From NCBI GenBank assembly GCA_001778695.1, contig MFHU01000003.1, positions 1,521 to 65,520 of the forward strand: DNA of 64,000 nucleotides, given 5' to 3'. A program made the translations under genes and the position numbers. This document shows, one piece after another, positions 3,006-47,311 of the stretch. Under the pieces are notes generated by a model. The model was not told the DNA's origin. It saw nothing but the letters and a program-made list of their open reading frames with translations, and ran no database searches. Within the stretch, counting starts at the first letter, position 1. Each line of letters opens with the position of its first letter. The DNA is from Candidatus Giovannonibacteria bacterium RIFCSPHIGHO2_12_FULL_44_22 (GTDB lineage: Bacteria; Patescibacteriota; Minisyncoccia; UBA11713; 2-01-FULL-45-33).

Positions 3006-3224
3006 TCAATACTTGGACGTGGGGTGAAGCCTTCTGATGTAGAAATGATGATAATCAATATTTTTATCAGCTCGCTCCCAATAGCCTGCGCCAGGCACAT
3101 ATCCCATTTCTTGAGAAAGATGGGTTGTTGCCTCTTCTTCAGAATTAAAAGGTCCAATACACACTATCCTATCATCGGATACTAAAATATGCATAGGTTT
3201 CTCCTTCTCCCCATATGATAGCAA
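3006..3224 (-). CDS. hypothetical small protein
   Basis: 72-aa ORF in an otherwise empty interval. No recognisable motif or ribosome-binding site. Confidence 0.2.
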   Translation of the reverse strand: MLSYGEKEKPMHILVSDDRIVCIGPFNSEEEATTHLSQEMGYVPGAGYWERADKNIDYHHFYIRRLHPTSKY

Positions 3225-3276
3225 TATCTACGATACGTGTCAAGTGGGGTGTAGTGTGGTATAATTGAGTTAAAAT

Positions 3277-4872: not shown

Positions 4873-4881
4873 AAATTAATT

Positions 4882-5160
4882 TTACGAAATTTTGGAGTCG
4901 ACGTACGAGGGGAGCCAGTCCATCAGTTTTTTGCGATGTTTATCTATTGACCATTCGTCGCCGCGTTTAAAAAGCGTCGGGTGCAGAACCTGAAATTCTT
5001 TCAATATTTTTGCCGATACCTTGGGAAAATCCAAAGGAACGCTCTTGTTGTAAGATTCCATAAAATTCGCGAGGGTTGTCGTGTTTTGATTAAGCTCCAG
5101 TTCGCGGTCTTTTTTGCTTCTCATATTTTTAATCCTAGCGCGAATCAATATAAAAAGCAA
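4882..5160 (-). CDS. hypothetical protein
   Basis: ORF of about 80-92 aa. The likely start is an internal Met (MRSKKDRELE...). No known domain recognised. Confidence 0.3.
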   Translation of the reverse strand: MLFILIRARIKNMRSKKDRELELNQNTTTLANFMESYNKSVPLDFPKVSAKILKEFQVLHPTLFKRGDEWSIDKHRKKLMDWLPSYVDSKIS

Positions 5161-5166
5161 GTTTTA

Positions 5167-5238
5167 TGGGCGTTGTAGGGATTGAACCTACGACCTTCTC
5201 GGTGTAAACGAGACGCTCTGCCACTGAGCTAAACGCCC
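5167..5238 (-). tRNA. tRNA-Val (anticodon TAC)
   Basis: Reverse complement GGGCGTTTAGCTCAGTGGCAGAGCGTCTCGTTTACACCGAGAAGGTCGTAGGTTCAATCCCTACAACGCCCA folds as a cloverleaf. Anticodon loop TTTACAC. Confidence 0.8.
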
Positions 5239-5252
5239 GTATATTTTATTTT

Positions 5253-5324
5253 TGCCGCGGGGCAGAATCGAACTGCCGACGCCATCCTCTTCAGGGATGC
5301 GCTCTGCCACTGAGCTACCGCGGC
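5253..5324 (-). tRNA. tRNA-Phe (anticodon GAA)
   Basis: Reverse complement GCCGCGGTAGCTCAGTGGCAGAGCGCATCCCTGAAGAGGATGGCGTCGGCAGTTCGATTCTGCCCCGCGGCA. Anticodon loop CTGAAGA. Confidence 0.85.
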
Positions 5325-5372
5325 AAGCAGTACCACTCCAGCGTAAAAATATATTAGCAGAATTGACCAATC

Positions 5373-6569
5373 TTGGCAAAAAGGATAAGATATTTTCAGA
5401 GGAGACAAAATATGTTTAAAGAAAAAACTGGGTTGTCTGCAATATCGCTTTTTTTGTGTGAAATTAAACAAATTCCTTTGTTGGGCAAAGAGGGAGAGAT
5501 CGCGGCATTCGTAGAGTTGGAAAAAGCAAAAAACGTTTTGTTTAAAAAAGCTCTTTTTCTAAAGCCCGTTCGCGAACAGATGCTCTTTGATTTAAAAAAT
5601 TTTGTTTTGGGTAAGAGCCATAATTCTCGTCCAAAAACGGATGAGGATAAAGATAATATTCGCACCGATCTTAATGCGGCTAAATCGCTCTTTAAGAAAA
5701 TTAGCGGAACTCGCAAATCTTTATGGTGGAATATTATTCAGAATTCCGGAGTTTATTTTTCTCTCTGTAAACTTGAGCGGTGGATTAGCGGTTTGAAAGA
5801 TCAAAATCTTTTTTCGGACGAGCTTGCTATGGTAACCGAAATCAGAAACCGTATAATGAAAGCTAATTTAAGGTTAGTGGTTGATATTGCCAAATCTTAT
5901 CCAGCAAATTCATCTATAGATTTTTTGGATAAAATTAACGAGGGGAACATCGGGCTCATGAAAGCCGTCAGCATGTTCAATCTCTCTCTTGGCTATAAGT
6001 TTAGCACTTACGCTGTGTGGTGGATAAAGCAGTCAATTATTCGAGCTCTAGTTGAAAAAGGCCATGTAATCAGGATTCCAGTGAATAAGGCGCAAGAGAA
6101 AAGTAAAATTTCCCGAGTTTTTCTTGCTTTGGCTCAAAGTTACGGTCGCGAGCCCACCATGGTGGAACTGGCCAAAAAACTTAAGCGGTCTCAAAAACAG
6201 ATTGCGGAAGTTCTGGCAATAGTAAAAGATCCATTTAGCTTAAATGATCCTATTGAGGATGGCGAAGGCGCGGCCGAATTCATTAATATTATAAAAGACA
6301 AAATAACACCTCCACTAGAAGACTCTACGGAAGAAAAAGAGAGAATGGAACTTGTAAACTTGGCGCTGCGCGAGCTTCCGCCACGAGAAGAAATTATTTT
6401 ACGGATGCGTTTCGGAGTCGGATGCAATTATGATCATACCTTGGAAGAAGTGGGAAAAAGTTTTCATATGTCACGTGAACGGGTCAGGCAAATAGAAAAA
6501 ACAGCAAAGAGAAAACTGAGATACCGATTACTTCGCAGAGGAATCCGTCCCAAAGCATTATTTATGTGA
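5373..6569 (+). CDS. rpoD: sigma-70 family RNA polymerase sigma factor (primary-like)
   Basis: Region 2 (LRLVVDIAKSY...NEGNIGLMKAVSMFNLSLGYKFSTYAVWWIKQSI) and region 4 (TLEEVGKSFHMSRERVRQIE) present. Atypical N-terminal 100 aa. Confidence 0.85.
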   Translation: MAKRIRYFQRRQNMFKEKTGLSAISLFLCEIKQIPLLGKEGEIAAFVELEKAKNVLFKKALFLKPVREQMLFDLKNFVLGKSHNSRPKTDEDKDNIRTDLNAAKSLFKKISGTRKSLWWNIIQNSGVYFSLCKLERWISGLKDQNLFSDELAMVTEIRNRIMKANLRLVVDIAKSYPANSSIDFLDKINEGNIGLMKAVSMFNLSLGYKFSTYAVWWIKQSIIRALVEKGHVIRIPVNKAQEKSKISRVFLALAQSYGREPTMVELAKKLKRSQKQIAEVLAIVKDPFSLNDPIEDGEGAAEFINIIKDKITPPLEDSTEEKERMELVNLALRELPPREEIILRMRFGVGCNYDHTLEEVGKSFHMSRERVRQIEKTAKRKLRYRLLRRGIRPKALFM

Positions 6570-6642
6570 TCTCCGAAAAAATATGAACGCCGGTCCCCCG
6601 GCGTTTTTCTATTTGTGAGTATTTTGTTAGCATACATTTATC

Positions 6643-6714
6643 GCGCCCATAGCTCAGTGGTAGAGCGTTTGCATGACACGCAAAAGGCCTGAGGTTCGAT
6701 CCCTCATGGGCGCA
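6643..6714 (+). tRNA. tRNA-Val (anticodon GAC)
   Basis: GCGCCCATAGCTCAGTGGTAGAGCGTTTGCATGACACGCAAAAGGCCTGAGGTTCGATCCCTCATGGGCGCA. Anticodon loop ATGACAC. Confidence 0.85.
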
Positions 6715-6731
6715 AAAATTATTTTTTAGAA

Positions 6732-6782
6732 CCCGCCTAGACTCCCGTCTAGACTCGACGAGGCTGACGGCGAGGCCGGCCG
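6732..6782. repeat. GC-rich repeat CCCGCCTAGACTC (duplicated) ...CGAGGCTGACGGCGAGGCCGGCC at the clpP 3' end
   Basis: Shares a 13-mer and the downstream CGAGGCTGNCGG with gpmI 4567..4599. Contains the internal tandem CTAGACTC x2 and a GGCCGGCC palindrome. Supplies the clpP C-terminal tail and stop region. Confidence 0.6.
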
Positions 6783-7408
6783 TTTTTGGAATTTTTTCCG
6801 AGAGCGTTTTTGGATTTTACGATTTCGTCAATAACGCCGTATTTTTTGGCTTCGTCTGGATCCATATAAAAATTTCTGTCGGCGTCTCGGTCTATCTGGG
6901 AAAAGGGCTGCTTGGTATGGTGCGCTAAAATTTTATTTATTTTTTCCTTAACATGCACGATGTGCTTGGCGTCAATCGCGATATCCGAAGCCTGCCCTTC
7001 GGAGGCGCCTAAAACCTGATGAATCATAATCTCTGAATTAGGCAGAGCGTATCTTTTCCCCGCGGTGCCTCCGGCCAAAAGTATAGCAGCGCCCGAAGCC
7101 GCGAAGCCGACGCAAAGAGTCGCCACATCCGGCTTGATGTGCTGCATTGTGTCATAAACCGCGAGTGTCGCCGAAACAGAGCCTCCAGGAGAATTAATAT
7201 ATAAATAAATATCCTTTTTAGGGTCCTGCAATTCCAAAAACAAAAGCTGGGCAATAATGGTATTAGCCACGGGGTCTATAATGGGGCCGCCCAAAAAAAC
7301 AATGCGGTCCTTGAGCAATCTGGAATAAATGTCGTAGGCGCGTTCGCCGAACTGTTCTTTTTCAATGACCGTTGGGATTAAATAGGTGTTATACATTTCG
7401 TCTTCCAT
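6749..7408 (-). CDS. clpP: ATP-dependent Clp protease proteolytic subunit
   Basis: Core [17 protein letters not shown]...INSPGGSV...MIHQVLGA motifs. Start chosen at the internal Met ([16 protein letters not shown]); the longer ORF to 7507 is less likely. C-terminus carries a basic extension, [16 protein letters not shown], encoded by a GC-rich repeat. Confidence 0.88.
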
Positions 7409-32188: not shown

Positions 32189-32263
32189 GGTGCCTATAGC
32201 TTAGTGGTAAAGCACCGCTCTGTGGCAGCGGTAACGAGGGTTCGATCCCCTCTAGGCACCCCA
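32189..32263 (+). tRNA. tRNA-His (anticodon GTG), with encoded G-1 and CCA
   Basis: G-GTGCCTATAGCTTAGTGGTAAAGCACCGCTCTGTGGCAGCGGTAACGAGGGTTCGATCCCCTCTAGGCAC-C-CCA. Anticodon loop CTGTGGC. The 3' end overlaps the recombinase stop. Confidence 0.88.
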
Positions 32264-33865
32264 TCGTGCACGAATGGATGCGAAAGCGTCCATTTTTGCT
32301 TGTGCTGTAAGGGTTTTCTCCAGTTCTAACCTTTTATATTCTTGCTCCAGTGCCGGATAGCCATTATTGATGGGTTGAAACCATTCATTCGGCTCAATAA
32401 AGAGCTTTTCGCCTTGTATTATCGGGGTTTTTCCAAGCGCTAGTAAAATTTCCTTTTGCAGTTCTAACCTTCCTTTCGCTTTTGCCTTAAGAAACTCCGC
32501 ACGGGCGTAAGTTGCGAAATGAAATGTCTTTTCCGTAAGCTCCAGCCATTTATCTGCTCTGCTCTCGGTTTCCCTTAGTTTGCTTTTCATATCGCTTATT
32601 TTGGCTTTAAGCTCGCTTTTTTCTTTGAGGTAAGCCTCATCATCAATAAGTTTGCGGTATCGCATTTTGGTAAGCTCATCTAAATTCGCCTGTGCTTCGG
32701 TTAAAGCCTTGTGGCGAGCTTCGTAAATTTTAGTTCGGTCTTCAATCTCGGTATCATTCTTGCTGTTTAGTCCTTCCAAAGCCCATTCCAAGAACTTCGG
32801 CAAAATAGTGTATTTGTCTATTTCTTGCTTAATTTGCGATTCTAAATTATCTGCCGGTATGTTTTTTATCTGCGGACACTTAAAATCCTTTTTTCTTTTG
32901 GTGCAATGGTAATACGTAAAGGTTTTTGCTTCGCTGGTCTTCTTTATAATTTTAGTATGGCTTTCTGCTGTGTAGAGGCATCCGCATTTCCCGCACCTAA
33001 TCGCTCCAGTAAATGCGAAATTATGCGTTTTGGGTCTAGGTTTGCCACTTTTGCCGAGTATGACTTGCACTTGGTCAAATTCTTCAAGAGAAATCATCGG
33101 TTCGTGCTTGCCTTGATATTGTGAGCCGTCTTTTCGCGCTATAAGCCCTGCGTAAAAAGAATTATTGAAAATTTTGTATATTCCGCTTTGGGAAAGCACG
33201 TTATCACTACTCTTTTTGATTTTTCGTGTCCTAAAACCCCATTCGCTAGTGGCAATTCCCAAAACTTTCATTGCGGAGTAATGACCAGTTAACATCAAAC
33301 TCCACATTTTCTTTACCAAGTTAAATCGCTCTGGGTCTTTGATAATGGTATGGTTAATTTTGTCGTTTAAGTATCCAAGCGGTGCTAGGCTCGGTAGCCA
33401 CCCTTTTTCTAGCTTGCTTTGTAAGCCTCGCTTAGTGTTCTTACTTAAATCCAAAATAAATTGGTTGGCCACGCCGGTCTCAACGCTGAATATCAAGACA
33501 TTGTCTTCCGGCACATACTCTCGGTCTATGGTGCGGATGGATTTTAATATGCCTTGCTGGAGCATCCAGCTTAAGTTCCCGCTATCAATAGGATTGCGGG
33601 ACAAGCGGTTAATTTGCCAGCACAAAATACCTTCTGCCTCACCGCTTTTAATTTTATTTAACACCTCGTCAAATACAGGGCGGTTGTCAGGTTGCTTGGC
33701 TGACTTTGCTTCCGTATAGATTTTTACAATATGCAAATTTAAGTCCTTGGCTAACTGCTTTAGCCGGTTTACTTGGTCATCAATGGACTGCACCTGCCGG
33801 TCTTCGCTTTCCGACGACTTCCTTGCGTATAAAAAGTATTTAATTTTTGGTTTATCTTGATTCAT
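32252..33865 (-). CDS. large serine recombinase (phage-integrase type)
   Basis: 537 aa. Resolvase catalytic domain (YARKSSESEDRQVQSIDDQ with catalytic Ser), recombinase domain, Cys-rich zinc ribbon (CGKCGC...HC), C-terminal coiled coil. Confidence 0.88.
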   Translation of the reverse strand: MNQDKPKIKYFLYARKSSESEDRQVQSIDDQVNRLKQLAKDLNLHIVKIYTEAKSAKQPDNRPVFDEVLNKIKSGEAEGILCWQINRLSRNPIDSGNLSWMLQQGILKSIRTIDREYVPEDNVLIFSVETGVANQFILDLSKNTKRGLQSKLEKGWLPSLAPLGYLNDKINHTIIKDPERFNLVKKMWSLMLTGHYSAMKVLGIATSEWGFRTRKIKKSSDNVLSQSGIYKIFNNSFYAGLIARKDGSQYQGKHEPMISLEEFDQVQVILGKSGKPRPKTHNFAFTGAIRCGKCGCLYTAESHTKIIKKTSEAKTFTYYHCTKRKKDFKCPQIKNIPADNLESQIKQEIDKYTILPKFLEWALEGLNSKNDTEIEDRTKIYEARHKALTEAQANLDELTKMRYRKLIDDEAYLKEKSELKAKISDMKSKLRETESRADKWLELTEKTFHFATYARAEFLKAKAKGRLELQKEILLALGKTPIIQGEKLFIEPNEWFQPINNGYPALEQEYKRLELEKTLTAQAKMDAFASIRARWGA

Positions 33866-33997: not shown

Positions 33998-35224
33998 TCA
34001 TTGTATATTGTCTTTTTTGTCCTTGCAAGTGGATAAATACTCTAACGAGATTGGCTCAAATTTTTGCAACTCTTGGCCTATGTATAGTGTTCCATCCGAG
34101 AGCGGCAAATCGTTGGCCAGTTTTTGTGCCGTAGCCAACTTTTCATCCAAGCGGCTATCTGATTTTTTAGACCACACCTTGCCCATTTCTTTGCGGAGTG
34201 TTTTTGCCCCGTGTTTTTTTATAATTGAAGCAAGGGCGTAGCTGATAAGTGCCTTATTATAGCTATGGACGCTTTGCTCTTTCTCTTTTGCTCTTTTCAA
34301 AATGTGAAGTAATAAATCTATATCGCCGTTTGAGTTTAATAATGCAATTTGATTTTCTGGTTTAGCAAGTATTCTTTGCCACGATGCATTCAAAATGTCT
34401 TTCCACAAATTTTCGGTAAATAAATCGGAAAGTTTTACAGGCGTGGCATAGGGTCTTTTAAGAAATCGGTTAACTTCACTCCTAATGGTCTGCGCCTTAT
34501 TTAGACGATATTCGTATCTGAAAACCTCCGTATTTTGTAAATTATAAAGTTCAATGACTTCTTTTTCATATGCCGTTTTTTGTTTTTCCAAACTTTTACC
34601 GCTTGGCCGGAGCATTTCTTGTATTTTATCGTAAAAAGCCCATTCTCTAGTTCCGCAAAAAAGATGGAGCGTTTCGTTTTCGTTTTGGTTTTTGCTTCGT
34701 ATGTCCTTTGTATTTCCATACGCCTTGCCAATATCTACGCGCGACAACTCTGCTAATATGGGGCGCAACGGACGGTCTGCGGGCAGTGGTATATTTTTAC
34801 AAAAATGCACCACGGATACAGAAGCATCGGCAATGGTTTGCGAAGTGATGTATATACCAATCTCTGGCAAGCGTTCCATCAGCGTAGTTAACAATTTGTG
34901 GTAGTCGCTCGGTAGGGCTTCCTGTAGGCTGTTTTCGTTTATCAGCTTTGGCGCAGAGAACTTTAATTTCATATCGTAATATATGCTTCTGCTTCGGTTG
35001 TCTGCGTTTTCGTATATTTCAACCCCCGGGTAAGTTAGACCATTATCTATGTCGGCGTGTAGAACAAAACTCCGCAGGTAGGGGACTTTTTTATTGTCTG
35101 CTCGCTTTCGGTCTTTTGGTGTCAAATCCGCGTAAGGTCTGGTGGAAAATTCGTGATTAAACATAGCCCAGTCTGCTACTCGGAATTTATCTATGCCGCG
35201 AATGCGAATTATGACTGTATCCAT
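33998..35224 (-). CDS. putative rolling-circle replication initiator (Rep_trans-like)
   Basis: 408 aa. HLFCGTREWAFYDKIQE resembles the Rep_trans motif (xYIGSRxSxxFxRVYDK). Assignment tentative. Confidence 0.4.
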   Translation of the reverse strand: MDTVIIRIRGIDKFRVADWAMFNHEFSTRPYADLTPKDRKRADNKKVPYLRSFVLHADIDNGLTYPGVEIYENADNRSRSIYYDMKLKFSAPKLINENSLQEALPSDYHKLLTTLMERLPEIGIYITSQTIADASVSVVHFCKNIPLPADRPLRPILAELSRVDIGKAYGNTKDIRSKNQNENETLHLFCGTREWAFYDKIQEMLRPSGKSLEKQKTAYEKEVIELYNLQNTEVFRYEYRLNKAQTIRSEVNRFLKRPYATPVKLSDLFTENLWKDILNASWQRILAKPENQIALLNSNGDIDLLLHILKRAKEKEQSVHSYNKALISYALASIIKKHGAKTLRKEMGKVWSKKSDSRLDEKLATAQKLANDLPLSDGTLYIGQELQKFEPISLEYLSTCKDKKDNIQ

Positions 35225-37239: not shown

Positions 37240-37394
37240 AGTGATAGTAATTTAACAAACTAAGCCATTTTTCTCAATGTTGTCCCGAATTTTGAGCTAT
37301 TACTTCAATTTGCGCCCAAATAGTGATATTTTACATTTATACAATTAAATATGGTTATTGCCTAACCCTCGTGAATTAAAAACTCCGAGGTATG

Positions 37395-37537
37395 GCAGAA
37401 AAACTGTTCAGGTATATTAAGCTCTTCGTCCAGAGCACCTGAACAGTCATATTCCGAAAGGAGTATGGGTGGCGAAAGCCATCGCTGGCGGAGAGCTTTG
37501 TGTTTTCCGCCAACAAGGCATAAATAAAACTGTTCAG
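37395..37537. promoter_or_regulatory. three copies of a CTGTTCAGGT 10-mer (two direct, one inverted) upstream of mod
   Basis: AAAACTGTTCAGGTAT at about 37400 and again immediately before the mod ATG. ACCTGAACAGT (inverted) at about 37440. Candidate operator or phase-control sites. Confidence 0.35.
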
Positions 37538-37539
37538 GT

Positions 37540-39147
37540 ATGCCAAAAAAATTACAATTACAAGATTGGACAAAAGAGCAACTCGTTGATGAGGTTGCGC
37601 GACTTCGTAAACGCAAGAAATACGGCCTTGTCTGGGAAGATAAGCCGGAAGATGTTGTTGAGCAATGCAAGACGGAATTGCCGGTGCTCAAGGAAGTGAA
37701 GAATAAGGCGATTGCGAAAGACAAAAACGGCCCCGTGAACATTCTGATTGAGGGCGACAATTACCACGCTCTCTCGGTCCTTAATTACACGCATAAAGGC
37801 AAGATTGATGTCATCTACATTGACCCGCCGTATAACACTGGAAATAAAGATTTTATTTACAATGACAATTTTGTAGATGCGGAAGACCCATACCGACATA
37901 GCAAATGGCTTTCGTTTATAGAAAAGCGATTAAAATTGGCACATTCTCTATTAAAAAATAGTGGTGCGATATTTATTTCTATTGATGATAACGAGGTGAC
38001 GCAATTGAAATTATTATGTGATGAGATTTTTGGCAAGAGAAATTTTGTTGAATGTATATCTTGGGAAAAGAAATCATCTGCAAAAGGAGTGCCTCCAAAG
38101 AATATGATTGTAAATGTCCACGAGTATATTTTGGTCTATCAAAAATCAGATAAATTTTCATTCTTGGGCGAGCCGAGAAGTGAAGAAAGTTTTAGCAATC
38201 CAGACAATGACCCACGAGGGCCGTGGCGAAATACGAATATAAAAAGCACGGTAAAGGACAGGTCTCACGCATTTTTAATCACCGACCCAAAAACTGGCAA
38301 TGTTTTTACTGACACTTGGGCGTTTAGCAAAAATGAGCTTGAAAGATTGATAAAAGAAAGGTATTTAATTTTCCCAAAAAATAAAAACGGCCAAGTAAGA
38401 GCAAAAGAATTTTACAATGAATTTAAAAATGCAAACATTCCGATAAAATCATCTTGGGGTTTGTTTGATAATCAAAAAAATACCGAGATGTTAAAAAAAA
38501 TTCTCGGCGATATAGTTTTCTTAAATCCCAAGCCGTTAGATTTGATAATTTATTTACTGAAAAGCGCGGCCAGCAAGGATGCTGTTGTTTTGGATTTTTT
38601 TGCTGGTTCGGGGACAACTGTTCACGCTTTATTAGTGGTTAATAGGCAGGATAAGGGTAAGCGTAAGTTTATTCTTTGCACTAACAATGAAAATAATATC
38701 GCAACCGATGTTTGCTATCCAAGAATAAAAGCAGTGATTGACGGGCATAAAGATTATCGGGACATTACAGGAATACCAAGCAATCTCAAATACTTCCGCA
38801 CAGCGTTTGTCGGCGCAGAGCCGAATGATAAAAACAAAGAAGCGTTGACCAAGCAAGCAACCGAAATGCTCTGTATGCGCGAAGATACCTTTGAGTCGGT
38901 AAAAGAGACAGGTGCGGTAAAGATTTTCAAAAACCCAAAACAGCATACGGGCATTGTTTTTGACGAGGATGCTATCCCCGCACTCAAAAAAGAAATTTCC
39001 AAGATTGGCGGCGTATGGAGCGTGTATATCTTCTCTCTTGGTGATGACACTTTTGAGGACGAGTTTGAGGATATGAAAGAGAAAATAACTGTTGCGCCGA
39101 TACCCGAAGCGATTTTGCGGGTCTATCGGCGTTTATTCAAACCATAA
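37540..39147 (+). CDS. mod: Type III restriction-modification system methyltransferase (Mod), beta-class N6A/N4C MTase
   Basis: DVIYIDPPYN (motif IV) precedes FFAGSGTT (motif I). 535 aa. Confidence 0.85.
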   Translation: MPKKLQLQDWTKEQLVDEVARLRKRKKYGLVWEDKPEDVVEQCKTELPVLKEVKNKAIAKDKNGPVNILIEGDNYHALSVLNYTHKGKIDVIYIDPPYNTGNKDFIYNDNFVDAEDPYRHSKWLSFIEKRLKLAHSLLKNSGAIFISIDDNEVTQLKLLCDEIFGKRNFVECISWEKKSSAKGVPPKNMIVNVHEYILVYQKSDKFSFLGEPRSEESFSNPDNDPRGPWRNTNIKSTVKDRSHAFLITDPKTGNVFTDTWAFSKNELERLIKERYLIFPKNKNGQVRAKEFYNEFKNANIPIKSSWGLFDNQKNTEMLKKILGDIVFLNPKPLDLIIYLLKSAASKDAVVLDFFAGSGTTVHALLVVNRQDKGKRKFILCTNNENNIATDVCYPRIKAVIDGHKDYRDITGIPSNLKYFRTAFVGAEPNDKNKEALTKQATEMLCMREDTFESVKETGAVKIFKNPKQHTGIVFDEDAIPALKKEISKIGGVWSVYIFSLGDDTFEDEFEDMKEKITVAPIPEAILRVYRRLFKP

Positions 39148-39148
39148 T

Positions 39149-41398
39149 ATGGCTTTTCAACTTACAAAATATCAAGACAAAGCGGCCCGCGAACTTCTGA
39201 TTAAATCAGAAGAACTTTTGAGCACTGGCAATCCCAAGACACTTGTCTTTAAGGCACCAACTGGCTCTGGAAAAACAATAATTATAGCAGAGTTTTTGAC
39301 ACGATTTTCGGATGACCACGACCATTCGCCTTGTGCGTTTATATGGGCCGCTCCTCACAAATTGCACGAGCAGAGCAAGGAGAAACTTGAGCAGTATTTT
39401 GAAAACACGCGAGCAATGGAATGTTCGTTTTTTGAGGATTTGGACGACCGGCAAATCGGCGAAAACGAAATCTTATTTTTTAACTGGGAGAGCATCCGGC
39501 GCGAAGACCTTATTTATATCCGAGAAAACGAACAGGACAATAACCTTTCAAGCGTTCTTGAACGAACACACAAAGCTGGACGAAAAATTATTTTAATTAT
39601 TGATGAAAGCCATCTCCACGCACCTGCCGAAACTTCTCAAAATCTCAAAAACGATATTGCGCCTGACCTGATTATAGAAACATCCGCAACCCCAACCCTT
39701 CCCGGAGACGATAATGTTACGGTGCAAATTGAAGCTGTTAAAGCGGAAGAAATGATAAAGAAAGCAGTGATACTCAATGAGGATTTCAAAAGCGTGGTGC
39801 GCCGTGGCCGCACCGAAACCATAAAGAGCGAGCTTGCCGGTAGTACCGATGATACTGTTTTGCGAGAAGCGTTGAAGAAGCGCGAGGAGCTTGTCCGAGC
39901 ATATAAAGCAGAAGGTGTTGCCGTAAATCCATTACTTCTTATCCAGTTGCCGAACCGTATTGGTCAGGCGGAGGAAGACCGCCAAACAATAATTGTACGG
40001 ACTCTCAATGATAAGCACGGCATCAGTGTTGAAAATGGCAAACTTGCCTTCTATATTTCAGAAAATAAAGAGAACTCTGAAAATATCTCTCGGAATGATA
40101 ACGAAGCCGAGGTTTTGATATTCAAGCAGGCCGTTGCACACGGCTGGGATTGCCCGCGAGCGCATATACTTGTGCTCTTTCGTGAGTGGCATAGCCCTGT
40201 GTTTTCCATTCAAACGCTCGGCCGGATTATGAGAGTGTCGGAGCCGGAGCACGGGTATTACGATAACGACATACTCAATTTTGCTTATGTTTATACGAAC
40301 ATTGACGACATTGTAATTCAAGAGGACATCGGTGGCGGATATGTAGTGATACATACCAGCAAACGAATTGCGAAATACAAGTCGGTTGAATTGCCATCGG
40401 TTCACCGCAAACGGCATCGTGAGCAGACGCGCTTGAGCCCGCTTTTTACACGGCTATTTCTTATGGAAGCGCAAAAATATACAAGCAAGGATAAAAAGAA
40501 AAAGGGCCTTGAAAAGATAATAAAACCCAAAGGCCAGCGTGTTCAGCAGGCGTTTATTTCTGACTGGAAAGCAGAAAACATAGATACTATTGCAGGCGAG
40601 CGCATACAAGCAGATGTGCAGATTGAAAGAGCAAGCGATATGGACCTTCAAAGGTTGTTTGATTATTTTGTGCGCAAAAATCTCTCTCCGTTTCACCCCG
40701 AAGACCGGTCCGTGGGCCGTCTGAAAGAGTCAATCTATAAGTTTTTTGATAAAGAGATGAGAATGACGAGGGCCGAGCATTTCCGGGATATCATAAACAT
40801 TGTCTTGAGCGAAGATAACCGGCCGCATTTTGAGGCAGTGATAGATAGTGCCAAACGCGCCTATATTGCGACAGCAGAGAAACGAGAGAAAGAAATAGTG
40901 GAAGATGTTTGGGAAGTGCCGGAGCGTGTCGCTTTCGGAAAAGGATATGTTGAAGCAAAACCAAAAAAGAAAAAATCCGTAATGAAGCCGTTTTTTTCTG
41001 ACGAACGCTGGCAATCTGAAAAAGCATTTATTGACTTTTTGGATAAGCCGCGAAATGATGTATCGTGGTGGTTCAAAAATGGAGACCGAGATGCGACTTT
41101 CTTCGCCGTGCAGTATAAAGATGGCAATGACTCGGCCCCGTTTTATGTTGATTTCGTGGTTATGATGAAAGACGGGAGTATCGGGCTATTTGACCCACAC
41201 GGGCTTCATCTGGCCGATTTTGGTGCGAAATCAGATGGTCTGCGAGCATACATAGCCCACTTGAAGAAAAAGGGCCGCAAGGTATCCGGTGGTATTATTG
41301 CGAATACCAAACCCGATTATACCGGCCAGTGGATGGTCTATGAAGGCAACGGAAAAAACGCGCGAGAGGGCAACTGGGATAACTGGAAACAACTTTAA
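39149..41398 (+). CDS. res: Type III restriction enzyme Res subunit (SF2 helicase-nuclease)
   Basis: Walker A KAPTGSGKTII, DEAH-like IIDESH, further helicase motifs. Start immediately after the mod stop. Confidence 0.82.
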   Translation: MAFQLTKYQDKAARELLIKSEELLSTGNPKTLVFKAPTGSGKTIIIAEFLTRFSDDHDHSPCAFIWAAPHKLHEQSKEKLEQYFENTRAMECSFFEDLDDRQIGENEILFFNWESIRREDLIYIRENEQDNNLSSVLERTHKAGRKIILIIDESHLHAPAETSQNLKNDIAPDLIIETSATPTLPGDDNVTVQIEAVKAEEMIKKAVILNEDFKSVVRRGRTETIKSELAGSTDDTVLREALKKREELVRAYKAEGVAVNPLLLIQLPNRIGQAEEDRQTIIVRTLNDKHGISVENGKLAFYISENKENSENISRNDNEAEVLIFKQAVAHGWDCPRAHILVLFREWHSPVFSIQTLGRIMRVSEPEHGYYDNDILNFAYVYTNIDDIVIQEDIGGGYVVIHTSKRIAKYKSVELPSVHRKRHREQTRLSPLFTRLFLMEAQKYTSKDKKKKGLEKIIKPKGQRVQQAFISDWKAENIDTIAGERIQADVQIERASDMDLQRLFDYFVRKNLSPFHPEDRSVGRLKESIYKFFDKEMRMTRAEHFRDIINIVLSEDNRPHFEAVIDSAKRAYIATAEKREKEIVEDVWEVPERVAFGKGYVEAKPKKKKSVMKPFFSDERWQSEKAFIDFLDKPRNDVSWWFKNGDRDATFFAVQYKDGNDSAPFYVDFVVMMKDGSIGLFDPHGLHLADFGAKSDGLRAYIAHLKKKGRKVSGGIIANTKPDYTGQWMVYEGNGKNAREGNWDNWKQL

Positions 41399-41400: not shown

Positions 41401-41586
41401 TTGAATATGGCAACATTTGGTAGCGGGACGCCGGAGAGCCCGGACAACAAATCTATAAGAGCCCAGCTTGAGGAGCTCAAGAAGCTCAACTCATCTACTG
41501 CTTCTTACAACAAGCTCATCATTGGCATAGCGTTGTCCACGCTTATCGTGAGCATTGTCGGCGTGATAATTGCGCTATGGAAATAA
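41401..41586 (+). CDS. small single-TM protein
   Basis: 61 aa with a C-terminal TM helix. Tightly packed after res. Confidence 0.3.
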   Translation: MNMATFGSGTPESPDNKSIRAQLEELKKLNSSTASYNKLIIGIALSTLIVSIVGVIIALWK

Positions 41587-42098
41587 ACAAAGAAACAATA
41601 AAAGAGTATGCCAATAGATACGATAGGCGTAGTAAGGGAACAGATGATGAGATTGCGGCAAATGAAATAACGAAATGGTTTAAGACGCATAGGTATTTGG
41701 ACAAGGAAAGATTTATGAGAGTTGCGCTTTGGAAGTCAAAAAGACCACAAAGGCATTACGCAAGCAATGACAATGCGATTGTTAAAGAAATCACCCAGTT
41801 TAGTTTGGCAACGAAAAACGAGGAGGTAAGATTAAAAGTCCTTTTTGCCATCAACGGCGTGTCATATCCTATCGCCTCGGTCATTCTTCACTTCGCATTT
41901 CCAGATAAATACCCGATATTGGATTTCAGAGTGATATGGTCTCTCGGTATAAAACAGCCCAAAAGCTATAATTTTGCTTTTTGGCAAAAGTATTGTGATA
42001 ATGTAAGGGATATTTCAAAAGAAATGGGCGAAAGCATAAGAACGGTGGATAAAGCTCTATGGGAGTATTCAAAAGAGCATCAAACTAAAGAGAAATAA
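41577..42098 (+). CDS. hypothetical protein with helix-hairpin-helix-like segment (OGG/EndoIII-like pattern)
   Basis: LKVLFAINGVSYPIASVILHFAFPDKYPILDFRVIWSLGI resembles the LxGVGxxTAxxIL...PVDxHV HhH-GPD pattern. Tentative. Confidence 0.35.
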   Translation: MEINKETIKEYANRYDRRSKGTDDEIAANEITKWFKTHRYLDKERFMRVALWKSKRPQRHYASNDNAIVKEITQFSLATKNEEVRLKVLFAINGVSYPIASVILHFAFPDKYPILDFRVIWSLGIKQPKSYNFAFWQKYCDNVRDISKEMGESIRTVDKALWEYSKEHQTKEK

Positions 42099-42266
42099 TG
42101 ATGTAATCACTTTGCATTTCTTCCCAATAGTAATTGAAGATATATATTTAGATTGGGAATCAAAAATAAAAGAAGATGGGACTATTGAAGTTTTGCTCAC
42201 CAATTTTTATAAGCCATAAATAACACAATTAGTGCGAGATGGTAAATGGTATAGTATGTTAGAAAT

Positions 42267-42710
42267 ATGACCAAATTATTAAAGGAGCAATTTGTTCAGG
42301 ATTGTATTTCTAACTATTTATCAAAACTCGGCTACCACAAACAAGAGCCGAAAGGATTAAGAGAGCACGGAGTTGATATAAAAGTTAAGCATAAAAATTT
42401 CGGCAGGTATTATTTGGTTGAGGTTAAGGGAGACCCCGGTAAAGACGTAAAATCACCGGGCGGTAGCAGGAATAGCTGTATGAACTCGGCAATCGGGCAA
42501 ATTATTACCAGAATGCATACCAACCGCAAAAGGGGCTATAAATATGGTTACAAATACGGCATCGGTTTCCCGATTTCTTTTAAGGAAAGAGTTATTAACA
42601 AAATACCCTACGATGTCTGCGACAAACTAAATCTTAATTTGTTTTTTGTTCACCCGTCTGGGGTAGTTGAAGCATATAATGATAAAAAATTAAAAGCATT
42701 ACAAAAATGA
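42267..42710 (+). CDS. hypothetical PD-(D/E)xK-like nuclease-fold protein
   Basis: HGVDIKVKH...YYLVEVKGD gives a D...E-x-K arrangement typical of restriction-endonuclease-like folds. Tentative. Confidence 0.35.
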   Translation: MTKLLKEQFVQDCISNYLSKLGYHKQEPKGLREHGVDIKVKHKNFGRYYLVEVKGDPGKDVKSPGGSRNSCMNSAIGQIITRMHTNRKRGYKYGYKYGIGFPISFKERVINKIPYDVCDKLNLNLFFVHPSGVVEAYNDKKLKALQK

Positions 42711-42988
42711 TTTCCAATTCAAACGAAGAAAAATCAGCGAAGAAAACCGATGATTTTAAGTTGAGCGATTTGTGTAAGTGCGGACATACATACGGCTCGC
42801 ATCCCTTCCTAAAAATACGCACCGAAGGCTTTCCAATGCCGCCCGCTTATTCTTGCATTAGTTGTAAATGCCAAAAATTTGAACTAAGTAGCAAGTATAT
42901 TACCGAAGACCGGAAACAAGAACTGCAACAGCTATTAGTAAATGCCGTGAAAGAAAAGCTAAGGAACAAGAGTGAAAATAACGAGTAG
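42707..42988 (+). CDS. Cys-rich small protein (putative zinc-binding)
   Basis: CKCGH...CISCKC arrangement. 93 aa. Confidence 0.4.
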   Translation: MISNSNEEKSAKKTDDFKLSDLCKCGHTYGSHPFLKIRTEGFPMPPAYSCISCKCQKFELSSKYITEDRKQELQQLLVNAVKEKLRNKSENNE

Positions 42989-43027
42989 CGGTAGAAAAAC
43001 TTTTTAGAACAAGTTAGATTTGGCTAT

Positions 43028-43225
43028 ATGAAAACAATCAAAGAAATATCGGAAAAGTGGGTTAAAAACTCACTTCGGGCATATCTTGAGGGCGAAAAAG
43101 ACCTCAAGTGGATTCAAGGCATTTTACGAGGAATGAGCAAGAACGAAGTAATGGGGCTTTTAAGCTCTCTACAATATGGCTTACCGGAGAGGCGCAATGA
43201 ATTGAATCAATGGCTCAATACTTAG
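43028..43225 (+). CDS. hypothetical small protein
   Basis: 65-aa ORF in a co-directional tight array. Confidence 0.3.
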   Translation: MKTIKEISEKWVKNSLRAYLEGEKDLKWIQGILRGMSKNEVMGLLSSLQYGLPERRNELNQWLNT

Positions 43226-43237
43226 TTAAGATAATTT

Positions 43238-43510
43238 ATGTTTTTCAAAAGCAGATTAAAGGAAATAGAAGAGGAAATTCTGAGAAAACGGAATGGTATT
43301 TTTGGGGATGGCACTGTCAATTTTGGCAATTCTTTTAATGCACGAAAAACAGAAATTGAGGCACAGGTTGCGATTTTAGAAGCGGAAAGACGTTTCATTA
43401 TAGATAGGAGAAATGGTTGGAAACCGAAAGTTATTTGGGATGTGCTTGTCCCAATTGTCGTAGCTGTGGCAACTGCTTATATCGTGGCCACTTTCGTCTC
43501 CGGGGCTTAA
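43238..43510 (+). CDS. hypothetical protein with C-terminal TM anchor
   Basis: 90 aa. Coiled-coil N-terminus, then TM helix (VIWDVLVPIVVAVATAYIVATFV). Confidence 0.35.
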   Translation: MFFKSRLKEIEEEILRKRNGIFGDGTVNFGNSFNARKTEIEAQVAILEAERRFIIDRRNGWKPKVIWDVLVPIVVAVATAYIVATFVSGA

Positions 43511-43689
43511 TAGTTTATGACCAAACATTACGACAAAGAAACGAGCGAAGAAATAGACGAAAATATCCACGAGCTGATGGAAAGCCACAATTTAGACAAA
43601 GATGAAGCGGAAAAAGTCCAAGAAATTATGGACGATTACGACTTGGACGAAAGCGATGCCGTTGAACTCAAAGATGACTTATAAAATTT

Positions 43690-43965
43690 ATGTTAAATTT
43701 CAGCCCCAAAAAATGCCTTTGTAATGTTGCCGATTGCGGCAAATGTTTAACTCTGGGGTGCACAAATGATAGCTGTAGCACTCATCGCATAGTAACTAAA
43801 TGGCGATACAGAAAACACCTTTTGGAAAGTTTAACAAACAAGATTGAAAAAATGCGTGACAGCAAACCTGAAAAAGAATTGGCGACTTTACGAAAAGATA
43901 TAAAAACTTGCAAAGAAGAAGTTAAAAGGTTGGGCGAGGTTATGGGTATGAAAAATAATGAGTAG
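43690..43965 (+). CDS. zinc-ribbon small protein
   Basis: N-terminal CLCNVADCGKCLTLGCTNDSCSTH (six Cys plus His), then a coiled coil. Confidence 0.4.
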   Translation: MLNFSPKKCLCNVADCGKCLTLGCTNDSCSTHRIVTKWRYRKHLLESLTNKIEKMRDSKPEKELATLRKDIKTCKEEVKRLGEVMGMKNNE

Positions 43966-44015
43966 CGGGATGAGGCTGAGTAGTAAAAATTACAAAAACC
44001 TGATATTTATTAAAT

Positions 44016-44612
44016 ATGCCTTTGGACAATTCTCAAAATCAAGCAACAAACGCAATCTATGTCTTTATTGACGCATCCAATTTGTGGGAGGCATTCAAGG
44101 CGAAGGGTAGATTTTTAGATTTTGAGAAGACGACAAAGTATATTAAAGAAAAGTTTAGCGGAACATCTATAAAAGCTTTTTACTATACGGCTTATCCAGC
44201 AGAGGGCACAAGAAATTACAGTTTGGACGGCAAACATAAATTTTTTACATACCTAAAAAAGGCATTGGGATTCGCAGTTATAAAGAAGGAGCTGAAAAGA
44301 ATCAGTGTAATAAATGAGCACGGCGAAGCAATAGAAGAAAAAGGCAATATGGATGTAGAGATGACCATAGATGCTATGCTTCATTTCAAAAAATATGACA
44401 CGGCGATTTTCTTTACTGGAGATTCCGATTTTCTGGCACTTGTAACATATTTGAAAAATCACGGGAAAAAAGTTTTTATATTTTCTTCAGAAAACAATGT
44501 GTCGCAGGAGTTGAGAACTGGCGCAAATGGCTATACCGATATTCTGGATGTTGATGGTGTCTGGGGCAAAGAGTTGAAACACAGAGCCGAATTAGAAAAG
44601 GAGGGTAGATAA
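44016..44612 (+). CDS. NYN-domain (LabA-like PIN-fold) putative RNase
   Basis: IYVFIDASNL, VEMTIDAM and FTGDSDF acidic residues match the NYN/LabA pattern. Confidence 0.78.
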   Translation: MPLDNSQNQATNAIYVFIDASNLWEAFKAKGRFLDFEKTTKYIKEKFSGTSIKAFYYTAYPAEGTRNYSLDGKHKFFTYLKKALGFAVIKKELKRISVINEHGEAIEEKGNMDVEMTIDAMLHFKKYDTAIFFTGDSDFLALVTYLKNHGKKVFIFSSENNVSQELRTGANGYTDILDVDGVWGKELKHRAELEKEGR

Positions 44613-44615
44613 AAA

Positions 44616-44639
44616 GCAACCCTCCTCGCGGAGGGTTGC
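44616..44639 (+). terminator. stem-loop after the NYN gene (terminator-like, no T-tract)
   Basis: GCAACCCTCC-TCGC-GGAGGGTTGC perfect 10-bp stem. Confidence 0.4.
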
Positions 44640-45060
44640 CCTTGGATGTTATACCCTTTCAGTTATGACTAACCGAAAGACAATATTAGTGTAGCAAATC
44701 AGCATACCCCGTCAATAACAAGTATTGGGTATAAATAGTGAATAGCGGGGGCGGGGTAAGTTTATGCGTTGGAGTAAGTTCTTAAATCCGGCACATAAAT
44801 ATATTCCTTTTGTCTTGCTATAATAGTTCTAACGTCCTCTACAATGCGACCCAAAATTATAAAAACAAAATTTCTAAATAAAAAAGGGCCCCGCGCGTGA
44901 AAGCGAAGGGCCTCAAAAGATGATAAACATAGCAAAGATAATTTTTTAATCGCAAGTCAGGATTATTAGTCCGACTAAAGTCTTTCGACTTCCCGCAAGG
45001 TTTGATCTTATCTCCCCCGGGGCCAATTAATATTTTATATTTGCCAGTTTTGTTTGGAAA

Positions 45061-45876
45061 CTACGCTGCTTCAAGGTCTTCTATATAGACCTGGGCGTAA
45101 TGTATGTCGTCTAAATGCCCACCACAATTTTGGTCCTTAAGATTATTCTCTCCACAAAGGGGGCAACAACGGCGTGGAACTATTTTCCCGGACGCGCTTA
45201 GATCGGACCTGTTAGAAATCGGAAATGTATATTTTTTTCCGAATTTCCAAACAATAATGCTATGATCTACAATCTCTTTGTTTCTGAGATTCCAATGGTT
45301 TATCCCAAGAGCCCCTCCTAGGCCAAGTATGAAAGCAACAATTAACCATACCTGATCCATAAAAGACCATTCGCCAAACCTAGTCACGGTCTGTTCCTTG
45401 GCGAGCAAGGCCTCCTTTAGCTTAACGTTTTCTACGCTCAACCTATCTCTTTCGCGAGCTCTTTCAACCAGTTCTTGACGTATTCTTTGTAATTCGTTTT
45501 CTTTCTTGTCGCGATCCGCGTTGGCCGTTTTTAGGTCATTTTCAAGCGTCGCTATCCGCGCAGATCTAGCTTGGTTTTCACCTCTTTCAGCATCCGCCAT
45601 ATAAATTTGGGCGGACACATTGGCCATTCTCTCTTCCGGAGATTGGCTGCAATTTTTCGGTAGAACAATCTCTTGGCCGATTGGTAATTTTCGCGGGTTG
45701 GCCAACGTCAAATTGCTGTCAATCATTATATCCGCAATCCATCCCGGATGGCAACCGGCTTTTTTCATAACAGAACTTAATGTCTGGCCTCTGGCCAGCT
45801 TCACAACATCTTGCGCTGAAGCCATTCGCGGCTCCAGCGCTCCAAACAAAATAAACAAACCGAGTACTAATTTCAT
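45061..45876 (-). CDS. LysM-domain membrane protein with coiled coil and C-terminal Cys cluster
   Basis: Start at the Met after FtsZ. Signal/TM N-terminus, LysM-like VKLARGQTLSSVMKK...IGQEIVLP, coiled coil, TM helix, C-terminus RRCCPLCGEN...CGGH. Confidence 0.55.
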   Translation of the reverse strand: MKLVLGLFILFGALEPRMASAQDVVKLARGQTLSSVMKKAGCHPGWIADIMIDSNLTLANPRKLPIGQEIVLPKNCSQSPEERMANVSAQIYMADAERGENQARSARIATLENDLKTANADRDKKENELQRIRQELVERARERDRLSVENVKLKEALLAKEQTVTRFGEWSFMDQVWLIVAFILGLGGALGINHWNLRNKEIVDHSIIVWKFGKKYTFPISNRSDLSASGKIVPRRCCPLCGENNLKDQNCGGHLDDIHYAQVYIEDLEAA

Positions 45877-45877
45877 A

Positions 45878-47311
45878 TCACCGTCCTCCTTTGTTGGTAT
45901 TGATTCCAATGAAATGCGGTTGATCGGCCGCTTCCACTTTCCTTTGGTTACTATCATTTCCATCGGCAATTCTTTTGCCGGTGTATGCCTCTACTCTTTT
46001 TCGGACATCTTCTTTTCTATCTATAAATTCTTGGCGGGGTTTTTTCCCACACCACCTAGGAAGAATGCCCCTTTGCATTTCCAACCACTCATTCGCTAAA
46101 GATTGAGGAACTTTAAGCTGGGTCATCTTCGCGGAGCTCCTGCCATTTTCTGCGACTATGACAGGAAAAGATATTGACACCAGAGCATCCTCCGTGTCTT
46201 CAGGAAACGGTACTTTGATCACCGGTTTGAGCCGGACGATTTCCGGCGGCTTTTCTTTTTTAGCCACGCCAACAACTCCAGTTTTTTCAATTGGCTGATC
46301 AGATGGCGGTTCCTTTGCTACAACGATCATGGCAACCCATTTCTTGCGGTCCTCAACTTGTTCGCGAGTGCTTACGTGAAATTCTACATTCGGCCTTCTG
46401 TCAGGATTTATAGCCTCTTTCACTTGGCCCGTAACTTTTTCAACTTCTCCCACAGACCAATTTCCATGAAATAAAATTAGTCCGCTTTCGGCCTTTTTCA
46501 CTATCTCTGTATCCTGATATCTGTTCTGAACGAGCTCTTTTCCTATTATTTTAGGATCGCACGGGGCGTCTTTATCTTCAAAGAAAAAGCTCCCGTACTG
46601 GACGTAATGTCCAAGAGCCAGGCGCGTCGTATAATCTTTAAGATCGGAATTTATGCCGTCTCCGACCTCCAGAATTAATTCGCGGAGAAAAACCATTACC
46701 AGCTGTTCTAAACAGCTTTTATTGATTATATTCCACGCTTCGCTTACCAATACATCCCTGTTCTCGATGTTATTATTGTATATCACAATCGTCGGAACAG
46801 CGTCTCGTATCGTATTTAAAGCGTCGTTGGCCCTGTTCATCCTGCCTTCAAATGGAAAGGGCATTGTGACTATTGTCAGCATGGGGATCTCTTTATCTTT
46901 CGCCATTTGCGCCACCGCTGGAACACCGCCAGTGCCCGTTCCGCCTCCGAGTCCCGCAACAATCAAGAGCGTTTGCAGTTTGTCTAAAAAATGCGATATC
47001 TCTTCTCTATCTTCTTCGATGGCTTTGGCTCCTATTTGCGGATCGCCACCAGCGCCCAGGCCTTTCGTTAGTTCATAGCCCAATTGGCACATGTACAACC
47101 TCTCGCTATTTTCCCATCCCTCGCAGCCTTTATTCTCTTGAAACAGTTTTAAATGTCCGGCATCTGTGTTCGCGGCCAAAATGTGCACGTGAGGATGATT
47201 TTCCGGCGGGAATGAATTAATTATTAGGCCGGCGTTGTTCACGCCGCACCCGCCAATAAACGCTATTCCTAAATTAACCGGACCTGTTTTTAGTTCTTTG
47301 TTTGGCTCCAT
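45878..47311 (-). CDS. ftsZ: FtsZ/tubulin-family GTPase with long charged C-terminal extension
   Basis: IGGCGVNNAG, NTDAGHL, AGLGGGTGTGGVPAVAQMAKD (tubulin signature GGGTGTG), T7-loop region. About 160 extra C-terminal residues rich in K/E/P. Confidence 0.8.
   Translation of the reverse strand: MEPNKELKTGPVNLGIAFIGGCGVNNAGLIINSFPPENHPHVHILAANTDAGHLKLFQENKGCEGWENSERLYMCQLGYELTKGLGAGGDPQIGAKAIEEDREEISHFLDKLQTLLIVAGLGGGTGTGGVPAVAQMAKDKEIPMLTIVTMPFPFEGRMNRANDALNTIRDAVPTIVIYNNNIENRDVLVSEAWNIINKSCLEQLVMVFLRELILEVGDGINSDLKDYTTRLALGHYVQYGSFFFEDKDAPCDPKIIGKELVQNRYQDTEIVKKAESGLILFHGNWSVGEVEKVTGQVKEAINPDRRPNVEFHVSTREQVEDRKKWVAMIVVAKEPPSDQPIEKTGVVGVAKKEKPPEIVRLKPVIKVPFPEDTEDALVSISFPVIVAENGRSSAKMTQLKVPQSLANEWLEMQRGILPRWCGKKPRQEFIDRKEDVRKRVEAYTGKRIADGNDSNQRKVEAADQPHFIGINTNKGGR

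Follow-up and report, generated by a model that had tools for sequence, protein, structure and literature searches.

Restriction-modification (R-M) loci are known to carry accessory genes, such as the rlo genes in hsd loci of Campylobacter and the gene for the anticodon nuclease PrrC, which is located within an hsd locus of Type I. Within the PD-(D/E)xK superfamily, XisH is catalogued as an fdxN element excision controlling factor found mostly in cyanobacteria, and DUF3883 domains are usually fused to ATPases, helicases or methyltransferases (PMC3424549). Ramaswamy et al. are cited in the reference list of PMC5311408, as are Hwang et al. (2014), whose title names an XisF-XisH-XisI complex. Here we describe positions 41401-44640 of a 64,000-nucleotide stretch of contig MFHU01000003.1, hereafter called the window, from Candidatus Giovannonibacteria bacterium RIFCSPHIGHO2_12_FULL_44_22, a member of the Candidate Phyla Radiation (CPR; Patescibacteria) with matching contigs from the Rifle aquifer. 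Nine tightly packed, co-directional open reading frames (ORFs) on the plus strand (41401-44612) follow the res gene of a Type III R-M pair in this region, and an initial annotation had proposed the cluster as a candidate uncharacterised defence or toxin module.

Comparison with homologous genome and metagenome loci (designated by L-numbers, e.g., L177) indicated that the region is likely to be a mosaic of accessory genes that follows the Type III R-M operon of a mobile island, and not one multi-gene system. Outside the species, the 173-aa protein with a helix-hairpin-helix (HhH), the 147-aa PD-(D/E)xK-like protein and the NYN protein of the cluster were never encoded together in the sampled loci, which comprised 80 genome loci for the 173-aa family and 80 metagenome loci for the 147-aa family; the one exception was a distant NYN beside a 147-aa homolog (L138). 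All 80 of the 173-aa loci were devoid of other cluster proteins, and the 173-, 93-, 65-, 90-, and 91-aa proteins were missing from all 80 loci of the 147-aa family. Similarly, the 173-, 147-, 93-, 65-, 55-, and 91-aa genes were found in none of 10 distinct NYN contexts outside the species. The same genes thus did not recur as a set across genomes, except for a 91-aa/93-aa pair and a 61-aa/90-aa/NYN set in L177, and in the absence of co-occurrence the proposal of one conserved module fails.

The nearest relative island, L177, showed approximately 80% DNA identity to the window over LOOT RNA, mod and res and over the NYN gene, which is located downstream of the mod-res pair there as well; its res was 80% identical to that of the window. 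L177 was shown to contain an ORF after res that is 83% identical to the 61-aa ORF, and a 112-aa protein with 62% identity to the C-terminal 50 aa of the 90-aa protein, and to lack six of the nine genes. Two blocks of the window are additional compared to L177: 41588-43413, which encodes the 173-, 147-, 93-, and 65-aa proteins and the N-terminal part of the 90-aa protein, and 43510-43974, which encodes the 55- and 91-aa proteins. Like PrrC and the rlo genes, the window genes are co-directional extra genes, with putative nucleases and an RNase among them, inside or at the end of an R-M operon on mobile DNA. They differ in that they show no sequence relationship to PrrC/rlo-type cargo, that functional coupling is putative, and that the accessory genes vary even between closely related islands.

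We propose that this variable region was assembled from three or more units that evolved independently, together with lineage-restricted small ORFs. The first unit would be the solitary mobile gene encoding the 173-aa HhH-GPD-fold protein, the second an XisH-like accessory of R-M islands (the 147-aa protein), and the third a conserved CPR unit, consisting of the NYN gene and a convergent small RNA of approximately 72 nt, against which the island abuts. All biochemical activities of the cluster genes, and any defence role, are putative.

The nine ORFs were all called by an independent Joint Genome Institute (JGI) gene caller on identical contigs (L002), with lengths of 59, 173, 147, 93, 65, 90, 55, 91, and 198 aa. 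The ORFs of the initial annotation were present at the coordinates given there, and nine genes follow res instead of the eight counted. Two ORF pairs overlap by 10 and 4 nt, and the remaining gaps are 5-50 nt with one exception of 168 nt. Its description of accessory cargo adjoining an R-M system agreed with our analysis, which placed the genes next to Type III mod and res on a mobile island. No match to a named defence system had been recognized, and none was found in PADLOC 2.0: eight of the nine ORFs were without match at E ≤ 1, and the NYN protein gave domain-level matches only (PDLC01154, 3e-11; HEC-09, 1e-6). Searches with hidden Markov models assigned none of the ORFs to a housekeeping family. 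Scans of viral contigs gave a single locus each for the 147-, 173-, and 93-aa families, which are therefore not typical phage genes.

The 173-aa protein showed a two-lobe helical fold containing a helix-hairpin-helix, in line with the glycosylase-like fold suggested initially. It had no Pfam, NCBIfam or PADLOC family and matched only a PHROG of unknown function; the Pfam HhH-GPD profile gave nothing at E ≤ 1, and a PDB profile search with the family reached Ogg only at an E-value of 1. Among the matches listed, 162 homologs showed at least 49% identity. In 43 sequences of the family, D116 was invariant and P109 and P113 nearly so, and W52, K53, N64, H105, and Y112 were found to be invariant and specific to the family. 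Alignment by hhalign with the hairpin of Escherichia coli Nth paired G94 with G116 and P98 with K120. D116 lies 22 residues after the hairpin glycine (G94), and the spacing equals that between G116 and D138 of EndoIII/Nth, the latter being the catalytic aspartate; on account of this equal spacing, the invariant D116 would correspond to D138. At the position of the lyase lysine of bifunctional enzymes, the 173-aa protein has a proline. From these features of the model and alignment we infer a putative monofunctional DNA glycosylase.

The protein thus shares the hairpin and the spacing of the invariant aspartate with HhH-GPD glycosylases, i.e., the Ogg2-type 8-oxoguanine glycosylase Tm1821 (PDB 3n0u), EndoIII, MutY, and MagIII. 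Compared to these it is only 12-16% identical, shorter, without an iron-sulfur cluster, and with proline instead of the lyase lysine, and its gene is solitary and found in unrelated contexts across phyla. Homologs were present in Patescibacteria, Planctomycetota, Acidobacteriota, Proteobacteria, Actinomycetota, and one genome of the archaeon Methanoregula. No neighbour family recurred in more than 8 of the 80 loci, and the immediate neighbours were as different as shikimate enzymes and integrases; a few scattered defence genes were among them. The 173-aa gene is therefore regarded as solitary and horizontally mobile.

The structure model of the 147-aa protein (predicted local distance difference test score 88.7) showed an alpha-beta-beta-beta-alpha-beta core with a D...(D/E)xK motif, which confirmed the PD-(D/E)xK-like assignment made earlier, with an intact D...ExK site. 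Its sole significant solved structural relatives were XisH proteins (PDB 2okf and 2inb), and structural matches to restriction enzymes were weak in comparison. The unannotated family comprised 207 homologs, mostly from CPR bacteria, in which D37, E52, K54, Q78, and R82 were invariant. On sequence level, Pfam XisH (PF08814) gave no match to the window protein at E ≤ 1 and matched none of 49 family members at E ≤ 0.01; a PDB sequence-profile search with the family gave nothing, XisH chains included, and no PADLOC match was found for the protein. The only Pfam family reached by sequence was NOV_C/DUF3883 (PF13020), which matched 5 of the 49 members (best E-value 1e-5). The match of the window protein (E-value 0.039), below the curated cut-off, covered the N-terminal half including the D...ExK core. 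The 147-aa protein differs from NOV_C/DUF3883 in being stand-alone and not fused. In addition, the family showed a weak sequence link to Mrr_cat_2.

Of the 80 metagenome loci of the 147-aa family, 49 had enough flanking sequence for counting the three genes on either side. An R-M gene was found within this distance in 31 of the 49 loci compared to 3 of 61 control loci of the 173-aa family (Fisher 2e-11), a comparison in which the seed proteins were taken from the 147-aa loci themselves and the two sets of loci came from different collections; an unbiased Pfam scan of the neighbours in the 173-aa loci agreed with the control result. The R-M genes near 147-aa homologs were co-directional in 52 of 58 cases. 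Cluster representatives of the neighbours included N6_Mtase, N6_N4_Mtase, ResIII, HsdR, RE_endonuc, DUF6997, and LexA-Dam, and the co-directional neighbours of the 147-aa gene were HsdM/HsdS/HsdR, Type III mod/res, DUF6997-type enzymes or LexA-Dam fusions. The R-M operons concerned were of Type I, II-like, and III, and the gene was either internal to them or at their end. Thus, the partners of the 147-aa protein are R-M and island genes and not the other flagged ORFs.

Fold and context suggest that the 147-aa protein may be a Mg-dependent nuclease or a DNA-binding accessory of R-M islands; by analogy it could control serine-recombinase excision like XisH, or act together with the R-M system. 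If it is a recombination-directionality or excision factor of the island recombinase, it would be an XisH analogue with a helix-turn-helix (HTH) protein in place of XisI, and the R-M genes would be mere cargo. Like XisH it is a small stand-alone PD-(D/E)xK protein with a fold closest to XisH, the catalogued role of which as an excision controlling factor (PMC3424549) fits this explanation, and many members of the family are located on large-serine-recombinase elements, in parallel to the XisF-XisH-XisI complex named by title in the references of PMC5311408. Of the 80 loci, 17-19 contained serine recombinases, 20 contained HTH_17, and 7-14 a member of the 408-aa family; HTH_17 was the immediate neighbour of the 147-aa gene in many loci, and in L097, L099, L104, and L107 the recombinase was directly adjacent and convergent. 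Many compact islands showed the order 408-aa gene, 147-aa gene, excisionase-like HTH_17, R-M genes, serine recombinase, in some followed by a tRNA. However, the family lacks sequence-level membership in XisH, no XisI family was matched in Pfam scans of the neighbour representatives, HTH_17 or an R-M gene being the usual neighbour, and it differs from XisH in its occurrence in CPR bacteria and its strong R-M linkage. Besides, six of the seven loci with full 8-kb flanks on both sides contained R-M genes and no serine recombinase, the 147-aa gene was located between mod and res in L084 and L085, and the window gene lies 8.4 kb from the recombinase without an HTH_17 neighbour. We consider an excision factor possible, if somewhat unlikely.

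The invariant D37/E52/K54/Q78 pattern, the co-directional adjacency to at least three R-M types, the order mod-147-res in two loci, and the weak links to NOV_C/DUF3883 and Mrr_cat_2 are consistent with an R-M-linked nuclease, which would provide extra or Type IV-like restriction or act as a guard when the R-M system is inhibited, with the likeness to XisH reflecting shared ancestry. Against this, restriction enzymes were weaker structural matches than XisH, PADLOC gave no match, the nuclease activity is putative, and the association with R-M genes may be due to hitch-hiking on the same islands; the chances of this explanation also seem modest to us. No papers linking CPR, R-M, and serine recombinases were found in our literature search. 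Two further small families that are absent from the window were observed near 147-aa homologs (L094, L115, L118, L119, L125, L128, L131, L133, L136, L140, and L149): a family of 55-89 aa with the motif F(K/Q)KIWxEE(F/Y)G...LLxL, and DUF5659.

The last ORF encodes a NYN protein, as initially annotated, with a PF01936 match of 84.5 bits (cut-off 24.2) that spans positions 2-144 of the 145-position profile. It is thus a full-length domain match to LabA/DUF88-type NYN proteins, and the active-site-type aspartate motifs IDASN and GDSDF could be read from the sequence by eye. The subfamily comprised 2204 homologs, the top 120 of which showed 72-100% identity across CPR lineages. Close homologs (72-85% identity) were located among NusA, trigger factor, ClpP, and RNase Y genes in island-free loci, after NusA in L170 and L174 and upstream of trigger factor/ClpP/RNase Y in L170 and L181, and beside Mrr, toxin-antitoxin or recombinase genes in L168, L172, and L173. 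The NYN gene is thus conserved widely in CPR bacteria, and its synteny elsewhere is of a housekeeping type; a literature search for the NYN domain and Patescibacteria found no papers. In L172, a region of 3.8 kb without called genes (3189-7001), which could be an rRNA or other RNA gene, was observed directly upstream of NYN.

Unlike other LabA/DUF88-type NYN proteins, this CPR subfamily is accompanied by a convergent, near-invariant RNA-like gene of approximately 72 nt in the sampled loci with a 3′ flank, in every one of which NYN was followed by a conserved element of approximately 115 nt. A covariance model of the element gave 12 matches, 11 of them distinct sequences, with 54-130 bits (89-130 bits for the eleven full-length matches), and the small-RNA-like gene was present in L168, L170, L172, L173, L174, L177, L178, L181, and L182 in addition to the window. 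Across 1.7 Mb of locus sequence, the model detected the element only after this NYN subfamily; it belonged to no Rfam family, and the motif had no match in viral contigs. A weak match after the distant NYN of L138 (E-value 0.81) did not appear on inspection to represent this element.

The perfect 10-bp hairpin that had been proposed to close the cluster is indeed present, but it corresponds to helix 1 of the element, with covariation in three stem pairs; it belongs to the conserved RNA-like gene on the minus strand. The minus-strand fold contained 26 pairs, five of them covarying, and C.A mismatches on the plus strand became G.U pairs, an asymmetry by which the assignment to the minus strand is supported. 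The predicted RNA had a minimum free energy of -36 kcal/mol (z -6.7 compared to shuffled controls). A promoter of the form TTGAC-N16-18-TAYACT was conserved, with the same -35/-10 arrangement in nine loci, and a T run (44611-44615) was present on the minus strand only, TTTTT following the stem on this strand in nine loci. Considering the promoter, the G.U versus C.A asymmetry, the stability, and the minus-only T run, the element most probably represents a small RNA gene convergent with NYN. A plain terminator on the plus strand was rejected since CCTTGGATG and no T run follows the stem on that strand and since the stem is part of the conserved minus-strand element; a terminator scan did not list the hairpin as a plus-strand terminator. 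That the element is a genuine small-RNA gene with a functional link to NYN is a tentative proposal, to which we give somewhat less than an even chance. Base-pairing between the small RNA and the 5′ region of NYN was rejected as duplex energies were no better than those of shuffled sequences in most loci.

In six of nine loci, the window not among them, the 220 nt that follow the NYN stop contained DnaA-box-like 9-mers (TTATCCACA with at most one mismatch, three of them perfect; L168 at 7716, L170 at 7702 and 7764, L172 at 7695, L174 at 8656, L177 at 7964, and L178 at 6704), compared to an expectation of approximately 0.07 per locus. The small-RNA promoter begins shortly downstream of most of them, a hint of DnaA control or of origin proximity.

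Among the small ORFs, the 61-aa ORF gave no match in family scans, and no homolog of the 65-aa ORF was found in any examined locus. The 93- and 91-aa proteins had been described as zinc ribbons; both are Cys-rich, and the zinc-ribbon fold is putative for both. The 93-aa family was rare (11 clusters in 1.84 billion representatives), and with the invariant pattern CxCxH-x4-H...CxxCxC the protein is Cys/His-rich and probably metal-binding. In L185-L188, a 93-aa homolog was found immediately after a 72% identical 91-aa homolog, with Fic and a frameshifted NYN of another subfamily upstream. In L189, a 93-aa homolog was located two genes after an 82% identical res, the order being res, 122-aa gene, 93-aa homolog, 107-aa gene. 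The NYN gene in L185 (1531-2357; also L186-L188) appears frameshifted, with its N-terminal MAYLLIDGENF in one frame and the remainder in another; this gene adjoins the Fic gene and lies just upstream of a 146-aa Zn protein and the 91- and 93-aa homologs. A stretch with 54% identity to the 55-aa protein was located directly after the 147-aa homolog of L094. At 90% identity, the small ORFs were confined to this species, in clusters of 1-3 members. The small membrane, acidic, and Cys-rich ORFs are thus a pool of short genes shuffled among related islands downstream of this res lineage. That the 61-, 65-, 90-, 55-, 91-, and 93-aa ORFs form an array of anti-defence or addiction-type cassettes, with an acidic DNA mimic and metal-binding inhibitors, would agree with their shortness, the strong acidity of the 55-aa protein, their shuffling, and their lineage restriction. 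It is nevertheless improbable, as no PHROGs functional category or NCBIfam match was obtained (AcrIF11 at an E-value of 0.37 is noise), family or structural support is absent, and the argument is drawn from size and composition only.

Some observations weigh against a mosaic on an integrative island. The very tight packing of the nine ORFs with two overlaps makes them probably co-transcribed with res, so that co-regulation is possible even if the genes arrived separately. The adjacent 91- and 93-aa homologs beside the frameshifted NYN in L185-L188, and the distant NYN (30% identity) directly after the 147-aa homolog in L138, make a recurrent association of NYN with small genes possible. The whole block from LOOT RNA to 240 bp past NYN is shared with L177 and the flanks differ on both sides, so NYN could travel with this R-M block. 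Furthermore, tblastn misses very divergent homologs of the 55-93-aa proteins. Direct repeats of the tRNA-His 3′ end were sought to place the right boundary of the island and none were found, and every contig sharing the flanking 271-aa protein, which was used to search for an empty site, carried the island.

That all nine genes, or a core of the glycosylase-like, nuclease, Cys-rich, and NYN genes, form one novel defence or toxin system working with or backing up the Type III R-M system draws on the overlapping arrangement directly after res, the lack of housekeeping assignments, the PADLOC NYN and HEC-09 matches, and the neighbourhoods in L185 and L138, but it is largely refuted by the co-occurrence data, the lack of six genes in L177, and the island-free loci of close NYN homologs, and we consider it very improbable. 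The mosaic accessory region thus remains the preferred explanation, and its features are collected in Table 1.

Table 1. Features of the Type III R-M island and the downstream accessory region, in window coordinates.
Feature	Position	Strand	Evidence or remark
tRNA-His, likely left end of island	32190..32263	+	ARAGORN and Rfam
Large serine recombinase, island integrase	32252..33865	-	Pfam Resolvase, Recombinase, Zn_ribbon_recom
LOOT RNA (RF03000)	37359..37483	+	Rfam 91.2 bits, gathering score 46.4; directly upstream of mod
Type III methyltransferase mod	37540..39147	+	PADLOC MTase_III 2e-96; Pfam N6_N4_Mtase 1.9e-38
Type III restriction subunit res	39146..41398	+	Pfam ResIII 4.5e-20; PADLOC REase_III 4e-17
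61-aa tail-anchored membrane protein	41401..41586	+	C-terminal hydrophobic segment read by eye
173-aa HhH-GPD-fold protein, putative monofunctional DNA glycosylase; solitary mobile gene	41577..42098	+	
147-aa XisH-like PD-(D/E)xK protein; associated with R-M operons and serine-recombinase islands	42267..42710	+	
93-aa Cys/His-rich small protein	42707..42988	+	Overlaps 147-aa stop by 4 nt
65-aa ORF, orphan	43028..43225	+	Called by JGI
90-aa protein, helical N-terminus and C-terminal membrane anchor	43238..43510	+	
55-aa highly acidic protein	43517..43684	+	
91-aa protein, Cys-rich N-terminus and helical tail	43690..43965	+	
198-aa NYN (LabA/DUF88-type) putative RNase; conserved CPR gene, island edge	44016..44612	+	PF01936 1.3e-23
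Predicted small RNA, ~72 nt, convergent with NYN	44611..44682	-	Two hairpins joined by near-invariant linker
Perfect 10-bp hairpin, predicted intrinsic terminator of minus-strand RNA, possibly bidirectional for NYN	44616..44639		GCAACCCTCC-tcgc-GGAGGGTTGC
Predicted sigma-70-like promoter of small RNA	44688..44715	-	TTGACG-16 nt-TACACT; promoter scan

The setting of the region is an integrative island carrying an R-M system, as follows from the serine recombinase adjoining tRNA-His, the drop in GC content, and the R-M genes. The tRNA-His gene is overlapped by the 3′ end of the recombinase gene, and GC content was 0.36-0.38 at 42-45 kb compared to mostly 0.40-0.49 across the remaining window. 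The mod product is a beta-class N6/N4 methyltransferase followed by a Res subunit with a helicase domain, as in Type III systems, and the two genes overlap at the mod stop and res start. On the minus strand to the left of mod are genes for proteins of 547, 99, and 408 aa together with the recombinase gene. The 408-aa protein (33998-35224) belongs to a family without Pfam or PADLOC match. Members of this family were observed at an end of compact R-M islands (L088-L092, L100, L101, L108, L110-L112, L125, and L153), usually with the 147-aa gene immediately downstream; the gene probably belongs to the island backbone, perhaps for replication or mobility.

Three related CPR islands (that of the window, L177 at 2161-2279, and L086 at 3501-3622) showed LOOT RNA directly 5′ of Type III mod, and approximately 14 other R-M loci scanned were without it. 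Possibly, it serves a subset of mod-res operons as a leader or regulator. Immediately to the right of the island, a divergent tubulin/FtsZ-family GTPase of 477 aa with a long C-terminal extension (45878-47311, minus strand) adjoins a 271/302-aa coiled-coil membrane protein (45061-45969, minus strand) and may represent a second FtsZ-like cytoskeletal gene.

These results show that a cluster in which a nuclease, a zinc protein, and an RNase are encoded next to an R-M system can be a mosaic, which affects the prioritization of candidates from defence islands. What is new lies in the parts. An HhH-GPD glycosylase-like family that occurs across many phyla without Pfam, NCBIfam or PADLOC match is now placed by structure, as is the XisH-like nuclease family with its linkage, in CPR bacteria, to R-M operons and serine-recombinase islands. 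LOOT RNA is placed directly upstream of Type III mod genes as a possible leader, and a conserved small-RNA-like gene was found paired with a NYN RNase. The XisH-like family could represent a general accessory nuclease of mobile CPR R-M islands that couples restriction to serine-recombinase mobility, and NYN together with the RNA of approximately 72 nt could constitute an undescribed conserved RNA-protein unit of Patescibacteria, in which the RNA would be a regulator or a substrate of NYN.

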